A stretch of DNA of 24,989 bases. It comes from a virus (Duplodnaviria; Heunggongvirae; Uroviricota; Caudoviricetes). The notes below the pieces were generated by a model. The model saw only the letters and a program-made list of their open reading frames with translations. It was not told where the DNA came from and made no database searches. This document shows positions 2,686 to 10,630 of this stretch, in pieces. Position 1 is the stretch's first letter. The number at the start of each line of letters is the position of its first letter. The position numbers were made by a program, and so were the translations under genes. The stretch lies in the IMG/VR virus record IMGVR_UViG_2619619133_000007; one strand, written 5' to 3'.

Positions 2686-2710
2686 CGCAAAGTCTCCGCA
2701 ATTACACGCA

Positions 2711-2732
2711 AGAAAAAACCGCCATCAGGCGG
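2711..2732 (-). terminator. Putative intrinsic terminator (minus strand): CCGCC/GGCGG hairpin followed by T6
   Basis: Stem CCGCC-ATCA-GGCGG at 2719-2732 with A6 on plus strand (T6 on minus) at 2713-2718; overlaps stop of the 55-aa ORF. Confidence 0.5.
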
Positions 2733-4267: not shown

Positions 4268-4453
4268 TCACCGTTCCTTAAAGACGCCGTTTAACATGCC
4301 GATCGCCAGGCTTAAATGAGTCGGTGTGAATCCCATCAGCGTTACCGTTTCGCGGTGCTTCTTCAGTACGCTACGGCAAATGTCATCGACGTTTTTATCC
4401 GGAAACTGCTGTCTGGCTTTTTTGATTTCAGAATTAGCCTGACGGGCAATACT
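4268..4453 (-). CDS. Small early-left protein, lambda orf61-like (start at internal Met MTHQQENAL...)
   Basis: ORF track 4268..4549; conserved lambda-like sequence and 186-nt length from internal ATG. Confidence 0.6.
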   Translation of the reverse strand, partial: SIARQANSEIKKARQQFPDKNVDDICRSVLKKHRETVTLMGFTPTHLSLAIGMLNGVFKER

Positions 4454-6370: not shown

Positions 6371-6667
6371 TTATACCTCTGAATCAATATCAACCTGGTG
6401 GTGAGCAATGGTTTCAACCATGTACTGGATGTGTTCTGCCATGCGCTCCTGAAACTCAACATCGTCATCAAACGCACGGGTAATGGCTTTTTTGCTGGCC
6501 CCGTGGCGTTGCAAATGATCGATGCATAGCGATTCAAACAGGTGCTGGGGCAGGCCTTTTTCCATGTCGTCTGCCAGTTCTGCCTCTTTCTCTTCACGGG
6601 CGATCTGCTGGTAGTGACGCGCCCAGCTCTGAGCCTCAAGACGATCCTGAATGTAATAAGCGTTCAT
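6371..6667 (-). CDS. gam: Gam, RecBCD inhibitor (98-aa short form only)
   Basis: Matches lambda GamS; good RBS (AGGAGG); upstream in-frame region has no start codon before a stop, so no long GamL form. Confidence 0.9.
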
Positions 6668-6742
6668 GGCTGACCTCCTGAAAATGGCTGTGAAAATATC
6701 GCCCGCGAAATGCCAGGCTGATTAGGAAAACAGGAAAGGGGA

Positions 6743-7033
6743 TTAGTGATTCAGGCCGTTACCGCGTCCGTCGAGAAAAACTTCCACGAGCAAATCACGG
6801 GTATAAGTGCGCTCGATGCCGCGATGCAGATAAAGCCGTCCGCGTAAATTAGCTGATGCAGTCCAGGTACCATCTTTGTGTTTGACCAGCATTCCTGGCA
6901 TGACCGCACCTCGATTAACGGTCTGCGTTCCATAATGTTGATGAACCATAAAAACTCCTGCCCGTAAGCTGGGCTGCTGAACATATAGAGACTTCTGCGC
7001 GTATTCAGGCGGTGGATGGCCGCCGGTTGTCAT
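6743..7033 (-). CDS. Hypothetical protein at the kil position; possibly Kil/KilR-like host cell-division inhibitor; start uncertain (internal Met at about 6949 possible)
   Basis: 96-aa ORF first downstream of the leftward early promoter; motif [20 protein letters not shown] resembles my recollection of prophage KilR-type proteins; an overlapping alternative frame (6751..6984) cannot be excluded. Confidence 0.4.
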
Positions 7034-7226
7034 AACTAAGCCGCCTCGTTGAAGCGACTAAGGTATGAAATGTTGAGTTAATTTCAGCTGGTCACACCGA
7101 CGTTCACGCGTCCGTTTCACCCCTCGCACTCCCCGAAGCCTGCTGAAATTCAAACTGCGGATCTAAGCGGTCATCGCAACGGTGAATCAGGTAGTTGCCG
7201 TATCGTTGTGTTGTTGCGATGAACTT

Positions 7227-7256
7227 ATTTAAAACTATAGTTGTTTTATCGTCAAC
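7227..7256 (-). promoter_or_regulatory. Putative leftward early promoter (PL-like) with overlapping operator repeats
   Basis: On minus strand -35 TTGACG (plus 7251-7256) and -10 TTAAAT (plus 7227-7232); overlapping AAAACAACTATAG and AACAAC/GTTGTT repeats shared with the rightward promoter region. Confidence 0.5.
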
Positions 7257-7392
7257 AACAAAAGTTGTTTTATTGGTTGTTTTAGATATAACTGGTTGTA
7301 TTTAGGATGGATTTATTTTGTGACTTGAATCGCATAGCGATAACTGAAGCGAGGTTATGGTGGTTTTTTTAACGGTGTGTGTGATGAGGGGA

Positions 7393-7423
7393 GGGCAAAA
7401 GAAAACCCGGCACGGTGACCGGG
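7393..7423 (-). terminator. Putative intrinsic terminator downstream of the repressor gene
   Basis: Stem CCCGG-CACGGTGA-CCGGG with TTTTCTTTT on the minus strand. Confidence 0.5.
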
Positions 7424-7544
7424 ATTCTTACGCCGTTAGGTAAAGATATTATTGCGGTGGCTTAATATTACTACCTAGAGCAAAGATAGGAATTAGTTCT
7501 TTACTGAATGAGCACAATGCCCAGTTGATAATTTTTAATTGGTA

Positions 7545-8234
7545 CTACCCATGCTTCCTATATGTCTGCGGCATGCTCCCAATAACCTTACCGAAGATGA
7601 ACACCCGGTTCATCTCGTCTTTCTCGATCGGGTCCCACGGTGAGTAGCTTTTGTTATCAGAGATGACCAGCAGCTTATCCTTCATCATTTGCAGGCGCTT
7701 TACATGGGCTGTGTCGTCGTACAGAAACGCATAGATACCATCACCGTCGAAAGATTTAACTGTGATATCAACGAACAGTAGATCACCTGGTTCGATCGTT
7801 CCTGACATGCTGTCACCACGCACGTTAATGATGCGGATATTTTCCGCCTTCCTACCATCGAACATGTGACGAGCATCGTCAAACGAGTACTCAACCGAGC
7901 GTAGAACTTCTACAAACTCACGGTTGATGACTCCCGGCCCAGCACTGACTTCTATATCAAGAACGTCAATCTTGAAGTATTTGGAATGGCTGACAGTTGA
8001 TTGTATTGGTTGCACTGTACTGTCTGACATATTTCCAACGCCAGAAGATAACCATTCTGCGCGCACACCCAAAGCGTTCGCGATCTCCACGATTTTAGTT
8101 GTTTGATTAGCTTTCCCTGTTTCGATTTTCTGAATAGCAGCCTGGCTAACCCCGACCAAATCCCCAAGCGCCTTTTGTGTAAGGCCTCGCGCTAATCTGG
8201 CTTCTTTAAGTCTTTCTGAGAGTGTTGTTTTCAT
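7545..8234 (-). CDS. CI-type prophage repressor (N-terminal XRE-type HTH, C-terminal S24 LexA-like peptidase domain); not lambda immunity
   Basis: Start taken at internal Met MKTTLSERLKEARLARGLTQKALGDLVG; Ala-Gly cleavage site and GDSM serine motif typical of RecA-stimulated autocleaving repressors; divergent from the adjacent cro-like gene. Confidence 0.8.
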   Translation of the reverse strand: MKTTLSERLKEARLARGLTQKALGDLVGVSQAAIQKIETGKANQTTKIVEIANALGVRAEWLSSGVGNMSDSTVQPIQSTVSHSKYFKIDVLDIEVSAGPGVINREFVEVLRSVEYSFDDARHMFDGRKAENIRIINVRGDSMSGTIEPGDLLFVDITVKSFDGDGIYAFLYDDTAHVKRLQMMKDKLLVISDNKSYSPWDPIEKDEMNRVFIFGKVIGSMPQTYRKHG

Positions 8235-8275
8235 AGTCCAAATGTACAACCAAGGTTTTATTCCATCAAACGAAA

Positions 8276-8311
8276 ATGGTTGTTGACTAAAAACAACCAT
8301 AGTTTTAATCT
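8276..8311 (+). promoter_or_regulatory. Putative rightward early promoter (PR-like) and operator: inverted repeat ATGGTTGTT-N7-AACAACCAT overlapping -35 TTGACT
   Basis: Perfect 9-bp inverted repeat at 8276-8300; -35 TTGACT at 8283-8288, candidate -10 TAATCT at 8306-8311; cro-like gene starts 8339 with GGAGG RBS. Confidence 0.55.
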
Positions 8312-8338
8312 TGATTCAAATTAACCACGGAGGTTGTT

Positions 8339-8569
8339 ATGAACCCAGCTATCAAAACAGCGATCAATATCGTTGGTTCACAAAAGAAACTGGGCGCTGC
8401 TTGCGAAGTTTCACAGCAGGCCGTCTATAAGTGGCTTCACAACAAAGCAAAGGTATCCCCTGAACATGTCGGCAGCATTGTTACGGCTACTGGTGGAGTA
8501 GTGAAGGCATACCAGATTCGCCCGGATCTTCCGAAGTTGTTTCCACACACCGAAAAGAACGCAGCTTAA
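8339..8569 (+). CDS. Cro-like small HTH regulator (YdaS-like)
   Basis: 76-aa ORF divergent from repressor, strong RBS; HTH-like segment LGAACEVSQQAVYKWL. Confidence 0.7.
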   Translation: MNPAIKTAINIVGSQKKLGAACEVSQQAVYKWLHNKAKVSPEHVGSIVTATGGVVKAYQIRPDLPKLFPHTEKNAA

Positions 8570-8638
8570 ATTTCCATTTCACGCTCTTTAACAATAAGCA
8601 ATCAACTTAACAGTCAATTCAAACTAAAGGAGTCAATT

Positions 8639-9178
8639 ATGCAACCACTTACATACCAACAGACTAGCGGATTTAGCCCGACTGCGGTGATAAATCGTTC
8701 TCAAACAAAACAGGTGCCAGGCCACGAAAAAATCCGTGATGCCGTCCGCGCCTGGTCGGCTGTAGATAATCAGGATGTCGTTGCCACACTCATTGTGAAT
8801 GAGTATCGGGAGCAGGGCGGCGGCACCATCGATTTCCCTGATGATGTCAGCCGTGCACGCCAGAAGCTGTTCCGCTTCCTCGATAACAAATTCGATTCTG
8901 AAAAATACCGAAATAACGTGCGTGAACTGACCCCGGCAATTCTGGCGGTACTACCGCTGGAATATCGCGGTTACCTGGTTGAGCAGGATAGCTTCATGGC
9001 TAGGTTGGCTGAAATGGAAAAGGAACTCAGTGAGGCAAAACAGGCTGTCATTCTCAACGCACCACGCCACCAGAAACTGAAGGAAATTAGTGAAGGTATT
9101 GTGTCGATGTTTCGTGTGGACCCAGATCTGGCTGGTCCATTGATGGCGATGGTTACTACCATGCTGGGGGCGATATGA
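8639..9178 (+). CDS. YdaT-family protein (proposed CII functional analogue in Rac-type immunity regions), putative
   Basis: 179-aa ORF directly after cro-like gene with strong RBS (AAGGAG); segments EYREQGGG and TPAILAVLP resemble what I recall of E. coli YdaT; family assignment from memory only. Confidence 0.45.
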   Translation: MQPLTYQQTSGFSPTAVINRSQTKQVPGHEKIRDAVRAWSAVDNQDVVATLIVNEYREQGGGTIDFPDDVSRARQKLFRFLDNKFDSEKYRNNVRELTPAILAVLPLEYRGYLVEQDSFMARLAEMEKELSEAKQAVILNAPRHQKLKEISEGIVSMFRVDPDLAGPLMAMVTTMLGAI

Positions 9179-9264
9179 CAGGTTCAGAAATGGCGAAAGC
9201 CGGTCTGCTGGAACAGAACCGACTTTCAGGTGCAAATCGTAACACACTCATTGCGGGAGGAATT

Positions 9265-10194
9265 ATGGCAAACACTGCTGAGATATTCAATTTTCCAGTG
9301 CCGGATGCGGCACAAAAGGAGCCGCGCGTGGCAGATCTCGATGATGGTTATACGCGCATTGCAAATGAGTTGCTGGAAGCTGTGATGCTGACCGGATTAA
9401 CACAGCACCAGCTTCTGGTCTTTCTGGCTGTCATGCGCAAAACATATGGCTTTAATAAAAGACTGGATTGGGTGAGCAACGAGCAACTTTCCGAATTGAC
9501 CGGGATATTGCCGCACAAGTGTTCTGCTGCAAAAAGCGTTCTGGTAAAGCGTGGGATTCTTATTCAGAGCGGGCGGAATATCGGCATTAATAATGTGGTC
9601 AGTGAATGGTCAACATTACCCGAATCAGGTAAGAAAAATAAAGTTTACCTGAAAGAGGTAAATTTACCTGAATCAGGTAAGAAAAGTTTACCCAAATCAG
9701 GTAAAGGCGTTTACCCGAATCAGGTAAACACAAAAGACAAACTAACAAAAGACAATATAAAACCTTTTTCGTCCGAGAATTCTGGCGAATCCTCTGACCA
9801 GCCAGAAAACGATCTTCCTGTGGTGAAACCGGATGCTGCAATTCAGAGCGGCAGCAAGTGGGGGACAGCAGAAGACCTGACCGCCGCAGAGTGGATGTTT
9901 GACATGGTGAAGACTATCGCACCATCAGCCAGAAAACCGAATTTTGCTGGGTGGGCTAACGATATCCGCCTGATGCGTGAACGTGACGGACGTAACCACC
10001 GCGACATGTGCGTGCTGTTCCGCTGGGCATGCCAGGACAACTTCTGGTCCGGTAACGTGCTGAGCCCGGCCAAACTCCGCGATAAGTGGACCCAACTCGA
10101 AATCAACCGTAACAAGCAACAGGCAGGCGTGATAGCCAGCAAACCAAAACTCGACCTGACGAACACTGACTGGATTTACGGGGTGGAGCTATGA
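9265..10194 (+). CDS. O: Replication initiator O (lambda O-like; divergent N-terminal DNA-binding domain, lambda-identical C-terminal domain)
   Basis: Start at ATG 9265 with GGGAGG RBS; C-terminal ~110 aa match lambda O (SGSKWGTAEDLTAAEWMFDMVKTIAPSARKPNFAGWANDIRLMRERDG...); contains ori iterons. Confidence 0.9.
   Translation: MANTAEIFNFPVPDAAQKEPRVADLDDGYTRIANELLEAVMLTGLTQHQLLVFLAVMRKTYGFNKRLDWVSNEQLSELTGILPHKCSAAKSVLVKRGILIQSGRNIGINNVVSEWSTLPESGKKNKVYLKEVNLPESGKKSLPKSGKGVYPNQVNTKDKLTKDNIKPFSSENSGESSDQPENDLPVVKPDAAIQSGSKWGTAEDLTAAEWMFDMVKTIAPSARKPNFAGWANDIRLMRERDGRNHRDMCVLFRWACQDNFWSGNVLSPAKLRDKWTQLEINRNKQQAGVIASKPKLDLTNTDWIYGVEL
9616..9728. repeat. Origin iterons inside O: five ~19-bp repeats TTTACC(C/T)(G/A)A(A/T)(T/A)(C/G)AGGTAA(A/G), followed by an AT-rich stretch (9729-9770)
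   Basis: Repeats read directly at 9616-9633, 9644-9662, 9663-9681, 9688-9706, 9710-9728; each is an internal inverted repeat; arrangement is analogous to lambda ori but the sequence differs. Confidence 0.85.
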
Positions 10195-10300
10195 AAAACA
10201 TCGCCGCACAGATGGTTAACTTTGACCGTGAGCAGATGCGTCGGATCGCCAACAACATGCCGGAACAGTACGACGAAAAGCCGCAGGTACAACAGGTACA
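10191..10300 (+). pseudogene. P: Truncated replication gene P (first ~36 codons only)
   Basis: [36 protein letters not shown] matches lambda P N-terminus, start overlaps O stop (ATGA); similarity ends near 10298 and the reading frame terminates shortly after. Confidence 0.85.
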
Positions 10301-10630
10301 GGAAAAGACATCATGCTCGGTAAAACGTATACCAAAGCAGAATGCAAAGCACTCTTGAATAAAGACCTTGCCACTGTCGCCAGACAAATTAACCCGTACA
10401 TCAAAGTCGATATACCGGAAACAACGCGCGGCGCTCTTTACTCATTCGTTTACAACGTGGGTGCTGGCAATTTCAGAACATCGACGCTTCTTCGCAAAAT
10501 AAACCAGGGCGATATCAAAGGCGCATGTGATCAGCTACGTCGCTGGACATATGCTGGCGGTAAGCAATGGAAAGGTCTCATGACTCGTCGTGAGATTGAG
10601 CGTGAAATCTGTTTGTGGGGTCAGCAATGA
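10301..10630 (+). pseudogene. N-terminally truncated phage lysozyme (T4-lysozyme-type endolysin, RrrD-like), C-terminal ~105 aa only
   Basis: ORF 10313..10630 matches the C-terminal part of DLP12-type lysozyme as I remember it; the catalytic N-terminal region is absent because of the P/R deletion junction. Confidence 0.75.

Follow-up and report, generated by a model that had tools for sequence, protein, structure and literature searches.

The stretch of DNA analysed here, a Caudoviricetes record of 24,989 nucleotides (IMGVR_UViG_2619619133_000007; hereafter the window), carries at positions 7227-9178 what is very probably the lysis-lysogeny (immunity) switch of a lambdoid phage, intact inside a prophage that lacks the genes from P through most of R. 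The locus consists of three genes and two regulatory regions and forms a complete lambdoid immunity module. The repressor gene cI is read leftward from the right operator region (OR), and cro and ydaT, followed by the replication gene O, are read rightward (cI < OR > cro-ydaT-O). Gene families were assigned with the profile libraries Pfam, at its curated bit cut-offs, and PHROGs. The original prediction of a non-lambda immunity module at this place stood up well, as all the features it named were found where it had placed them, in a combination far beyond chance.

The module belongs to the lambdoid immunity regions with an S24-type CI, a YdaS-type Cro and a YdaT-type CII analogue, a class that is known, ordinary and widespread. 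Its arrangement has already been described for CP-933P and Rac, and phage records annotate the genes as cI, cro and cII. Added here are a definition and map of the operators, a lambda-like geometry built from 434-like sites, a conserved fourth operator and a candidate OOP-like RNA. Furthermore, the comparison demonstrates that immunity specificity is exchanged as a cassette of CI helix, OR, cro and the left operator region (OL).

Operator unit, map and natural exchange

The AACAAC/GTTGTT repeats of the locus resolve into a 14-bp unit, ACAAC-N4-GTTGT. With at most one mismatch, this unit occurs five times in the 25-kb window (7231, 7255, 8246, 8293 and 8324), and all five copies lie in the two regulatory stretches. 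The expectation is 0.87 sites (P(≥5) = 0.001), and none of 1000 first-order Markov resamples contained three sites within 110 bp. A sixth site, at 8270, has two mismatches and makes the array at OR complete and regular, giving four sites there (8246, 8270, 8293 and 8324) and two at OL (7231 and 7255), approximately 1 kb leftward. The repeats had been proposed as operators, and both this clustering and the tie between the motif and the CI recognition helix across loci speak for that assignment, with the 14-bp palindrome as the predicted unit.

For the comparison, we collected 78 loci with a gene for a relative of the CI N-terminal domain, taking one genome per species. The recognition helix SQAAIQK is kept in 35 of them (Kosakonia, Enterobacter, Klebsiella, Pectobacterium, Brenneria, Serratia, Morganella, Pantoea, Erwinia, Rosenbergiella, Arsenophonus and others), and these loci hold 128 sites with at most one mismatch. 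Of these sites, 70 are located no more than 140 bp upstream of cI; they come from 33 of the 35 loci and fall at approximately -25, -72 and -103, and a weaker conserved site is found at -49. The 20 loci with the helix QPTIWR (98 kb) contain three sites at the same threshold, with none upstream of cI. When 19 OR regions are aligned, the half-sites are near-invariant and the spacers variable. Downstream of cI, at a variable distance, the SQAAIQK loci carry a perfect site and, 24 bp on, ACAAC-N4-GTTTT, with TTGACA between the two and TTAAAT after them, which is the order of OL2, OL1 and the leftward promoter PL in the window. The Cro recognition helix changes in step with that of CI, SQQAVYKW accompanying SQAAIQK and AQPTVWRW accompanying AQPTIWR.

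At OR, three operator centres (8252.5, 8276.5 and 8299.5) are spaced by approximately 23-24 bp between the divergent promoters PRM and PR. The OR3-like operator (8246-8259, ACAACCAAGGTTTT) lies over the PRM -10 with its centre 18.5 bp from the cI ATG, and is the -25 site of 33 of the 35 related loci, where it is often perfect. The OR2-like operator (8270-8283, ACGAAAATGGTTGT, two mismatches) has its centre 42.5 bp from the cI ATG; it abuts the PRM -35 and overlaps the PR -35 by 1 nt (by 2 nt if taken as the 16-mer 8269-8284). The OR1-like operator (8293-8306, ACAACCATAGTTTT) is placed between the PR -35 and -10, centred 65.5 bp from the cI ATG. A fourth operator (8324-8337, ACCACGGAGGTTGT, one mismatch) follows 31 bp from OR1, at about +7 to +20 of PR, and covers the cro Shine-Dalgarno sequence. 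It recurs at approximately -100 to -105 in most related loci, across genera, and the perfect half may be either one.

At OL, OL1 (7231-7244, AAAACTATAGTTGT, one mismatch) sits between the PL -35 and -10, and the same site is found 24 bp from OL2 in related loci. OL2 (7255-7268, ACAACAAAAGTTGT) is the only perfect palindromic site of the set and overlaps the PL -35 by 1 nt (by 2 nt as the 16-mer 7254-7269); 15 related loci have a perfect site at the equivalent place. Two lone half-sites that match well, TGGTTGTT (7274-7281) and TGGTTGTA (7293-7300), lie upstream of OL2 and possibly form a weak OL3; one or two AAAACAACC half-sites recur there in relatives. A repeat search pairs 7229-7247 with 8290-8308 (19 nt, 95% complementary), because PL and PR are paralogous, each with one operator between -35 and -10 and another overlapping the -35. 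Of the repeats quoted earlier from around 7231-7275, AACAACAAAAGTTGTT is exact at 7254-7269 and AAAACAACTATAG is the reverse complement of 7235-7247. These had been assigned to the divergent promoters together with the repeat at 8276-8300; the latter is indeed located there, whereas the former belong to the separate leftward PL/OL region 1 kb away.

The exchange of specificity can be followed in phage 3W. It has the CI C-terminal domain in common with the window (identical from approximately residue 85), along with O, kil, the PL leader, the terminator after cI and a YdaT of 97% identity, but differs in CI residues 1-44, the whole of OR and cro (48% identity). An OL cassette of approximately 80 bp (7236-7318) is replaced as a block in 3W by ATACGC/CAATAGC-type repeats, with flanks that are about 90-95% identical. 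Other heteroimmune phages such as 4A7, D2 and Perceval resemble 3W, and in the heteroimmune phages the match of the PL leader ends at about position 7220 of the window, the predicted start of PL. The siblings with the same CI C-terminal domain are 3W, 4A7, Lambda_4C10, D2, Perceval, Salmonella phage S149 and phage Fraca. These siblings have another cassette, with ATACGC/CAATAGC motifs, in place of the OL core, OR, cro and CI residues 1-44 (their helix being AQPTIWRL), and S149 has a small lambda-type cII where the window has ydaT. An annotation note on S149 had prompted a look at HK022, a relationship that was dismissed with a CI identity of only 41%; likewise, the put-containing early region of HK022 was not similar to the PL leader or to the cro-ydaT spacer.

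Two further phages match only the OL core of the window, namely Klebsiella phage ST101-KPC2phi6.1 (H104, 7511-7622, 79% identity) and Providencia phage PSTCR7lys (H105, 4398-4443, 91% identity). This restriction of the match to the OL core suggests that phages of other genera have this operator specificity, too.

Repressor, Cro and the YdaT-like protein

The gene cI (7545-8234, minus strand) encodes 229 aa comprising a helix-turn-helix (HTH) N-terminal domain, a linker and an S24 autopeptidase domain. The list of open reading frames (ORFs) contains a longer reading (7545-8300, 251 aa), and RefSeq-type annotation as well as the relatives start at MKTTL. Pfam assigns HTH_3 to residues 9-62 (5.4e-13) and Peptidase_S24 to residues 95-218 (1.2e-18, model positions 5-116 of 116), and the protein falls into PHROG 4, 'transcriptional repressor'. 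Among PDB entries, the N-terminal domain is best matched by the 434 repressor (4.5e-9), with 434 Cro also close, and UmuD' is among the matches of the C-terminal part. The recognition helix reads SQAAIQKIE. The translation holds VSA98-G99PG in the linker, GDS142M and VK179RL; from established knowledge of LexA and lambda CI, we take A98-G99 to be the cleavage site and S142/K179 to be the Ser/Lys dyad. The description of the repressor as an XRE HTH protein with an S24 autopeptidase domain was thus confirmed by the Pfam domains, the Ala-Gly site, the GDSM serine and the VKRL lysine. By analogy, a protein that unites an HTH, an S24 domain with a Ser/Lys dyad and an Ala-Gly linker site is predicted to undergo RecA-stimulated cleavage. 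CI is identical (100%) to CI of phage PhiR26_1.

Within cI, an operator-like 14-mer, ACGATTTTAGTTGT, with two mismatches is found at 8089-8102 in the codons for TTKIV, exactly where homology with 3W-type cI resumes (8101). We do not count it as an operator, since a similar site occurs at a locus with a different recognition helix (L059); together with the position in the TTKIV codons, this makes a coding coincidence the probable origin.

The gene cro (8339-8569, plus strand, 76 aa) starts 105 bp from the cI start on the opposite strand. Its product belongs to the YdaS family (Pfam YdaS_toxin, PF15943, 4.1e-17, 62.2 bits against a cut-off of 30), as had been proposed, and to PHROG 35, 'transcriptional repressor'; its recognition helix is SQQAVYKW.

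Between cro and O, the ydaT-like gene (8639-9178, plus strand) encodes a CII analogue of 179 aa. At 103.5 bits (cut-off 21; 8.5e-30), the protein matches Pfam YdaT_toxin (PF06254), and its PHROG is number 163, 'CII-like transcriptional activator' (3.9e-67). The sequence match to the two solved YdaT proteins is weak (E 0.002-0.004). An AlphaFold (AF2) model with a predicted local distance difference test score (pLDDT) of 75 has disordered residues 1-27, a helical core and long C-terminal helices. A Foldseek search with this model placed chains of 8BT1 and 3C4R in the top six positions (probability 1.0, template modelling score 0.58-0.63 on the target, 26-27% identity), and only these two entries are real structural matches. 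Besides fitting the family profile, the protein would therefore, as modelled, have a POU-like helical domain followed by a long oligomerisation helix. The earlier assignment to the YdaT/CII-type regulators agrees with the Pfam, PHROG 163 and structural matches. The YdaS of CP-933P and Rac behaves as a Cro, and their YdaT, a tetrameric DNA-binding protein that reads (A/T)TGATT-N6-AATCAA near the ydaS/ydaT junction, turns on a reverse promoter for the repressor (PMC8630535, PMC9986795, PMC11879457).

The spacer between cro and ydaT has features of its own. Three repeats resembling half-sites are found at 8600-8641 (AATCAA at 8600, AGTCAATT at 8612 and AGTCAATT again at 8631). A leftward CATAAT (8636-8641) overlaps the ydaT ATG, with a poor -35 inside ydaT; as a YdaT-dependent counterpart of lambda PRE this element would be a guess only, and it was set aside as it is not conserved in other ydaT loci. 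In most ydaT-carrying relatives (L007, L034, L036 and others), the cro stop codon falls into the loop of a GC-rich hairpin, GCCGC-N6-GCGGC. The window shows merely a degenerate left arm of this hairpin at 8560-8580, followed by an A/T-rich spacer of 69 nt.

Promoters, an OOP-like unit and the surrounding prophage

The predicted PL (7227-7255, minus strand) has a -35 TTGACG (plus 7250-7255), a 17-nt spacer and a -10 TTAAAT (plus 7227-7232). It would start near 7220 and read leftward into kil-gam-bet-exo, and the architecture OL2-TTGAC(A/G)-OL1-TTAAAT is kept in approximately 19 related loci of several genera. We infer PRM and PR from conservation and position. PRM (8241-8269, minus strand) has the -35 TTGATG (plus 8264-8269) and the -10 TACATT (plus 8241-8246). 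The hexamers TTGAT and TAnnTT are conserved in relatives, as is the -10 ending 6 nt before the cI ATG, and a leaderless cI mRNA is therefore predicted, by analogy with known switches. PR (8283-8311, plus strand) has the -35 TTGACT (8283-8288) and the -10 TAATCT (8306-8311), with a predicted start near 8318; TTGACT and TA(A/T)TCT are kept in close relatives.

Downstream of cI, an intrinsic terminator (7406-7423, minus strand, CCCGGTCACCGTGCCGGG + TTTTCTTTT) is the equivalent of lambda tImm and is conserved in 3W. The gap between the cI stop codon and this terminator (7424-7544) is an insertion slot that is empty in the window. In 3W (L002, 3188-4700), IdasGreatGrand and PhiR47_2, it holds one or two extra genes in the position of lambda rexAB, annotated GevT/GevA in PhiR47_2; a literature search on the PhiR phages or GevT/GevA found nothing relevant.

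The leader from PL to the long kil ORF comprises approximately 190 nt. Between PL and kil there is no leftward-strand ORF of at least 32 aa, the leader folds no better than its shuffles (z -0.33), and Rfam gave no match at E ≤ 1 over 6500-9400. At the predicted 5' end of the PL transcript, 7213-7222 can pair with 7171-7180 into a perfect stem of 10 bp, and an arginine-rich 31-aa ORF with a TTG start (7058-7153, minus strand), without a Shine-Dalgarno sequence or a PHROG match, lies 3' of this stem. The order of stem and ORF at 7058-7222 resembles PL-nutL-N; nothing indicates a function, and the region is about 95% conserved in heteroimmune phages. N or nut-like elements in the PL leader were rejected on these grounds (no ORF of at least 32 aa, a 31-aa ORF lacking both marks, no fold excess and no Rfam match), and complete-genome phages show the same arrangement without N.

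That N, cIII and rex are absent, as had been noted, is consistent with this leader and with the empty slot between cI and its terminator. Likewise, no ORF matches the cII family in Pfam or PHROGs, and no lambda-type PRE box is present, as the stretch from cro to the next gene has no leftward promoter with TTGC-N6-TTGC. The sole copy in the window is the CII box of lambda promoter PI (TTGCGTGTAATTGC, 2698-2711, minus strand), which is intact just upstream of the lambda-type xis. It marks an orphan CII-dependent promoter, which arose when a lambda int module and a YdaT-type immunity module were brought together in a mosaic.

To the right of ydaT, a predicted OOP-like unit (9185-9290, minus strand) consists of a pO-like promoter, a 5' hairpin, a terminator hairpin and a U-rich tail. 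The promoter, TTGAAT-N17-CATAAT at 9290-9262, was called by the promoter scan, aligns with lambda pO (TTGAGT-N17-CATAAT), and has its -10 over the likely O start ATG at 9265. In lambda, the pO -10 overlaps the O start codon and 52 nt of oop overlap cII (PMC5869508). Here, transcription would start leftward near 9254 and end near 9185, giving an RNA of approximately 70 nt. On the minus strand, the ydaT-O spacer folds into the 5' hairpin and a 15-bp hairpin at 9194-9228, followed by the U-rich tail. Among 105 unique sequences downstream of ydaT homologues, canonical pairs make up 99.5% of this second hairpin on the minus strand, compared to 77.5% on the plus strand, and slid controls reach at most 54%. 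Compensatory changes are found at 8 of 13 pairs, the hairpin surpasses each of 500 column shuffles, and in nearly all of the sequences the 12 nt after the hairpin contain 5-8 U. The covarying hairpin is a leftward intrinsic terminator, putatively that of an OOP-like antisense RNA. The predicted RNA covers the ydaT-O spacer only, without overlapping the coding end of ydaT (stop codon 9176-9178), and neither an Rfam match nor sequence likeness to lambda oop beyond the O start was seen for this unit. ORF lists and RefSeq-type annotation let O begin at 9175, which is probably too long: the ATG at 9265 stands behind a strong Shine-Dalgarno sequence (GGGAGG, 9255-9260) and aligns with the lambda O start, leaving a ydaT-O spacer of 86 nt.

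Of 5426 complete E. coli genomes, 2315 match the 2.4-kb module, the usual carrier being a DLP12-type prophage at the argU tRNA. The window as a whole is colinear with none of the complete E. coli genomes, the best of which covers 94% of it in 5 pieces. Over the module, DNA identity is 96-99.9% to PhiR34_1, PhiR26_1, PhiR5_1, Turner and IdasGreatGrand, which are complete genomes with K-12 or E. coli C as the host. Compared to PhiR34_1, the window has two differences in 2401 bases, one synonymous in cI and one in O. The prophage itself is defective through a deletion that begins at about codon 38 of P and ends midway in the endolysin gene. What is left of P are its first approximately 38 codons (10191-10358), the 105 C-terminal aa of the endolysin come next (10313-10630), and the deletion, which took P through most of R including the nin region, Q and S, is evident against a full DLP12-type prophage (L001). 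The statement that no phage is produced agrees with this junction. On the left side, int (1419-2489) and xis (2467-2685) are lambda-type and full length, as had been claimed, and kil, gam, bet and exo downstream of PL are full length as well. In view of the near-identity of its switch to that of PhiR34_1, a response of the prophage to DNA damage is plausible as judged from the DNA.

Alternatives, likeness to known switches and the proposed mechanism

The perfect inverted repeat ATGGTTGTT-N7-AACAACCAT, correctly located by the original prediction at 8276-8300, could itself be functional, either as one large operator or as a hairpin or bidirectional terminator between the divergent genes. It is the sole perfect long palindrome of the intergenic region and is flagged on both strands by the terminator scan, yet we regard such a role as very improbable indeed. 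The outward-facing half-sites are separated by N9 at OR and N10 at OL, whereas the inward spacing of ACAAC-N4-GTTGT is constant everywhere. Isolated sites (OR3, the fourth site, OL2 and the Pectobacterium -25 site) are N4 palindromes without an outward partner, and in Pantoea/Erwinia-type loci the outward arms have lost their complementarity (GGTTGT / AAACAC) while each 14-mer is still operator-like. The loop of the repeat is the PR -35 hexamer TTGACT, and 434-type domains read 14-bp sites (PMC1636474). The 25 bp are the right half of OR2 and the left half of OR1 on either side of the PR -35 rather than one operator. An extremely improbable alternative for the two rightward genes is a toxin-antitoxin pair. 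It draws on the Pfam names ('Bacterial toxin YdaS', 'Bacterial toxin ydaT') and on the toxicity of the Rac proteins when overexpressed (PMC11879457). However, the gene order cI < OR > cro-ydaT-O is that of an immunity region, the PHROG annotations read transcriptional repressor and CII-like activator, and the Cro helix co-varies with the CI helix and the operators. For CP-933P and Rac, published work describes both proteins as DNA-binding regulators and the toxin-antitoxin reading as tested and rejected (PMC8630535; PMC5917428).

It is also very unlikely that the module is an inert relic whose repressor and operators regulate nothing, even though P is truncated, the deletion took the nin region, Q, S and part of R, and no phage can be made. 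Relative to PhiR34_1 there are just two substitutions in 2401 bases, one of them synonymous in cI and the other in O; ORFs, operators, promoter hexamers and terminator are all intact; and with kil, gam, bet, exo, xis and int full length under PL, the repression of Kil alone would keep cI selected. For the element after ydaT, we considered a small translationally coupled ORF (MTGSEMAKAGLLEQNRLSGA..., with an ATGA overlap with the ydaT stop codon) or an N-terminal extension of O, which is unlikely. In the window, the frame from 9175 is open and continuous with O, RefSeq-type annotation lets O begin there, and similar peptides can be read in several relatives. Nevertheless, in L007 a TAA stops the small ORF after 7 codons while the hairpin stays intact, and elsewhere the ORF enters other frames or stops. 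Pairing reaches 99.5% canonical on the minus strand only, where many G-U pairs would become A-C if read on the coding strand; 8 of 13 pairs show compensatory changes, and the U-run 3' of the stem is on the minus strand as well. The GGGAGG sequence before ATG 9265, aligned with the lambda O start, favors the later start, and the 30-aa peptide from 9175 has no PHROG match. We thus retain the immunity switch, with a putative OOP-like RNA to the right of ydaT, as the preferred reading.

Several points weigh against this reading in its details. The order of operator occupancy and the activation of PRM are taken wholly by analogy. PR and PRM each agree with the consensus at 8 of 12 positions, which is below the threshold of the generic promoter scan, so that neither was called. 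A full third OL site was sought as a complete 14-mer, and half-sites were all that was found. The YdaT box (A/T)TGATT-N6-AATCAA is absent from the window at up to one mismatch. Its best matches lie at 8311-8328 (two mismatches) and 8588-8605 (three mismatches), and with 20 matches against 13.9 expected it is not above chance. The cro-ydaT spacers of the window and 3W are unrelated although the YdaT proteins are 97% identical, and the YdaT target and a PRE-like promoter were therefore not located. The 80 loci with a near-identical YdaT show just two upstream contexts, from which no YdaT site could be deduced, and 13 more distant YdaT loci share no box with the window. With this box absent and no substitute found, the CII-like role is one we infer from family and gene position only. 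Finally, the U-rich tail of the terminator after ydaT is less U-rich in the window than in most relatives, and the pO-like -35 is not evident in all of them.

In terms of known systems, the operators come closest to those of 434. The 434 reference operator ACAATNNNNATTGT is 14 bp long in a 5+4+5 layout, with the outer 5+5 contacted and the inner four not (PMC1636474). The sites described here share this geometry and the outer ACAA...TTGT, and their consensus differs from ACAAT-N4-ATTGT only at position 5 and its mirror. The CI N-terminal domain, for which the 434 repressor is the best match as given above, has approximately 24 of 64 aligned residues in common with it (counted in the alignment). 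However, the recognition helices differ (SQAAIQK here, TQQSIEQ in 434), and this is therefore not 434 immunity; a DNA search of the module against phages gave no 434 match. Furthermore, Cro is of the YdaS family instead of a paralogue of the repressor as in 434, YdaT stands in place of cII, OR has a fourth site, and OL has two full sites instead of three.

The label 'non-lambda' holds for the proteins and the operator sequence, while the geometry is almost exactly that of lambda. Measured from the cI ATG, the OR centres are at 18.5, 42.5 and 65.5 bp, compared to 19, 42 and 66 in the annotated lambda record. The second OR site abuts the PRM -35, the distance between OL1 and OL2 is 24 bp, cI has a terminator behind it, and CI is of the S24 type. 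The predicted leaderless cI mRNA and the pO-like -10 over the O start codon are lambda-like, too (PMC5869508). In contrast, the operator sequence and CI N-terminal domain are unrelated to those of lambda, Cro and the CII analogue are of other families, and N, cIII and rexAB are missing. The distance between OL and OR is 1 kb instead of 2.4 kb, and there are not exactly three sites on each side, with a fourth one at OR and two full sites plus half-sites at OL. In addition, the OOP-like RNA would miss the coding region of ydaT, whereas oop overlaps cII by 52 nt.

With CP-933P and Rac, the locus shares the order repressor < > ydaS-ydaT-O and the same Pfam families (PMC8630535, PMC9986795, PMC11879457), and with CP-933P the four OR repeats and a leaderless repressor gene (PMC8630535). 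It differs from both in having an S24 autocleavable CI instead of PaaR2 or RacR, no toxin-antitoxin insert, and a YdaT that has approximately 27% identity to those with solved structures and begins with a disordered extension of 27 residues. The operators of CP-933P are of the GTTTAGTAA type, and its box TTGATT-N6-AATCAA was not found here. The closest relatives, which have an identical CI and match the whole module with 96-99.9% DNA identity, are PhiR34_1, PhiR26_1, PhiR5_1, Turner, IdasGreatGrand, PhiR47_2 and the DLP12-type prophages at argU. Unlike these, the window has its module in a prophage with lambda int/xis and a P-to-R deletion, and some of the relatives carry inserts between cI and its terminator.

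Taken together, the switch could operate as follows. CI dimers would bind the 14-bp ACAAC-N4-GTTGT operators through their 434-like HTH. At OR1 (8293) and OR2 (8270) they would cover PR and turn off cro-ydaT-O. CI at OR2 could, by analogy, activate PRM, because OR2 abuts the PRM -35 in a lambda-like manner 42.5 bp from the cI start, and the transcript would begin at or next to the cI AUG. OR3 (8246), over the PRM -10, would provide negative autoregulation, and the fourth site (8324) would sit over the cro ribosome-binding site. Occupied OL1 and OL2 would cover PL and silence kil-gam-bet-exo-xis-int. Upon DNA damage, RecA-stimulated cleavage at A98-G99 by S142/K179 would, by analogy with LexA and lambda CI, part the DNA-binding and dimerisation domains and let PL and PR fire. 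The YdaS-family Cro may then take the same operators, as the co-variation of the helices suggests, and hold PRM down. During establishment, the YdaT-family protein would replace CII in stimulating a leftward cI promoter, in analogy to CP-933P and Rac, and the short leftward RNA ending at the terminator after ydaT may counteract ydaT as OOP does cII. It is conceivable, at somewhat less than even probability, that this immunity type represents a distinct, undissected variant of the lambda switch. Such a variant would combine 434-like operators in lambda geometry with a conserved fourth operator over the cro ribosome-binding site, lack N, cIII and lambda CII, have a YdaT with another target, and link an undescribed OOP-like RNA to ydaT rather than to the replication gene, pairing with the ydaT-O intercistronic region instead of coding sequence.

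The known picture of such switches is unchanged by these results. The covarying hairpin after ydaT offers a testable candidate for an OOP-like RNA in phages with YdaT instead of CII. If this RNA is made and controls ydaT or O, OOP-type control would be general and structurally conserved in YdaT-carrying lambdoid phages of Enterobacterales. The swap of CI helix, OR, cro and OL core may serve as a clean example of how lambdoid specificity is exchanged within cI. Since the module is present in 2315 of 5426 E. coli genomes and several complete-genome phages, a map of its operators and promoters is useful in practice. It allows predictions on homo-immunity among prophages and on the early genes (Kil, Gam/Bet/Exo and Int/Xis) that DNA damage would free from defective prophages, and it shows where mutations would give non-inducible or constitutive variants.

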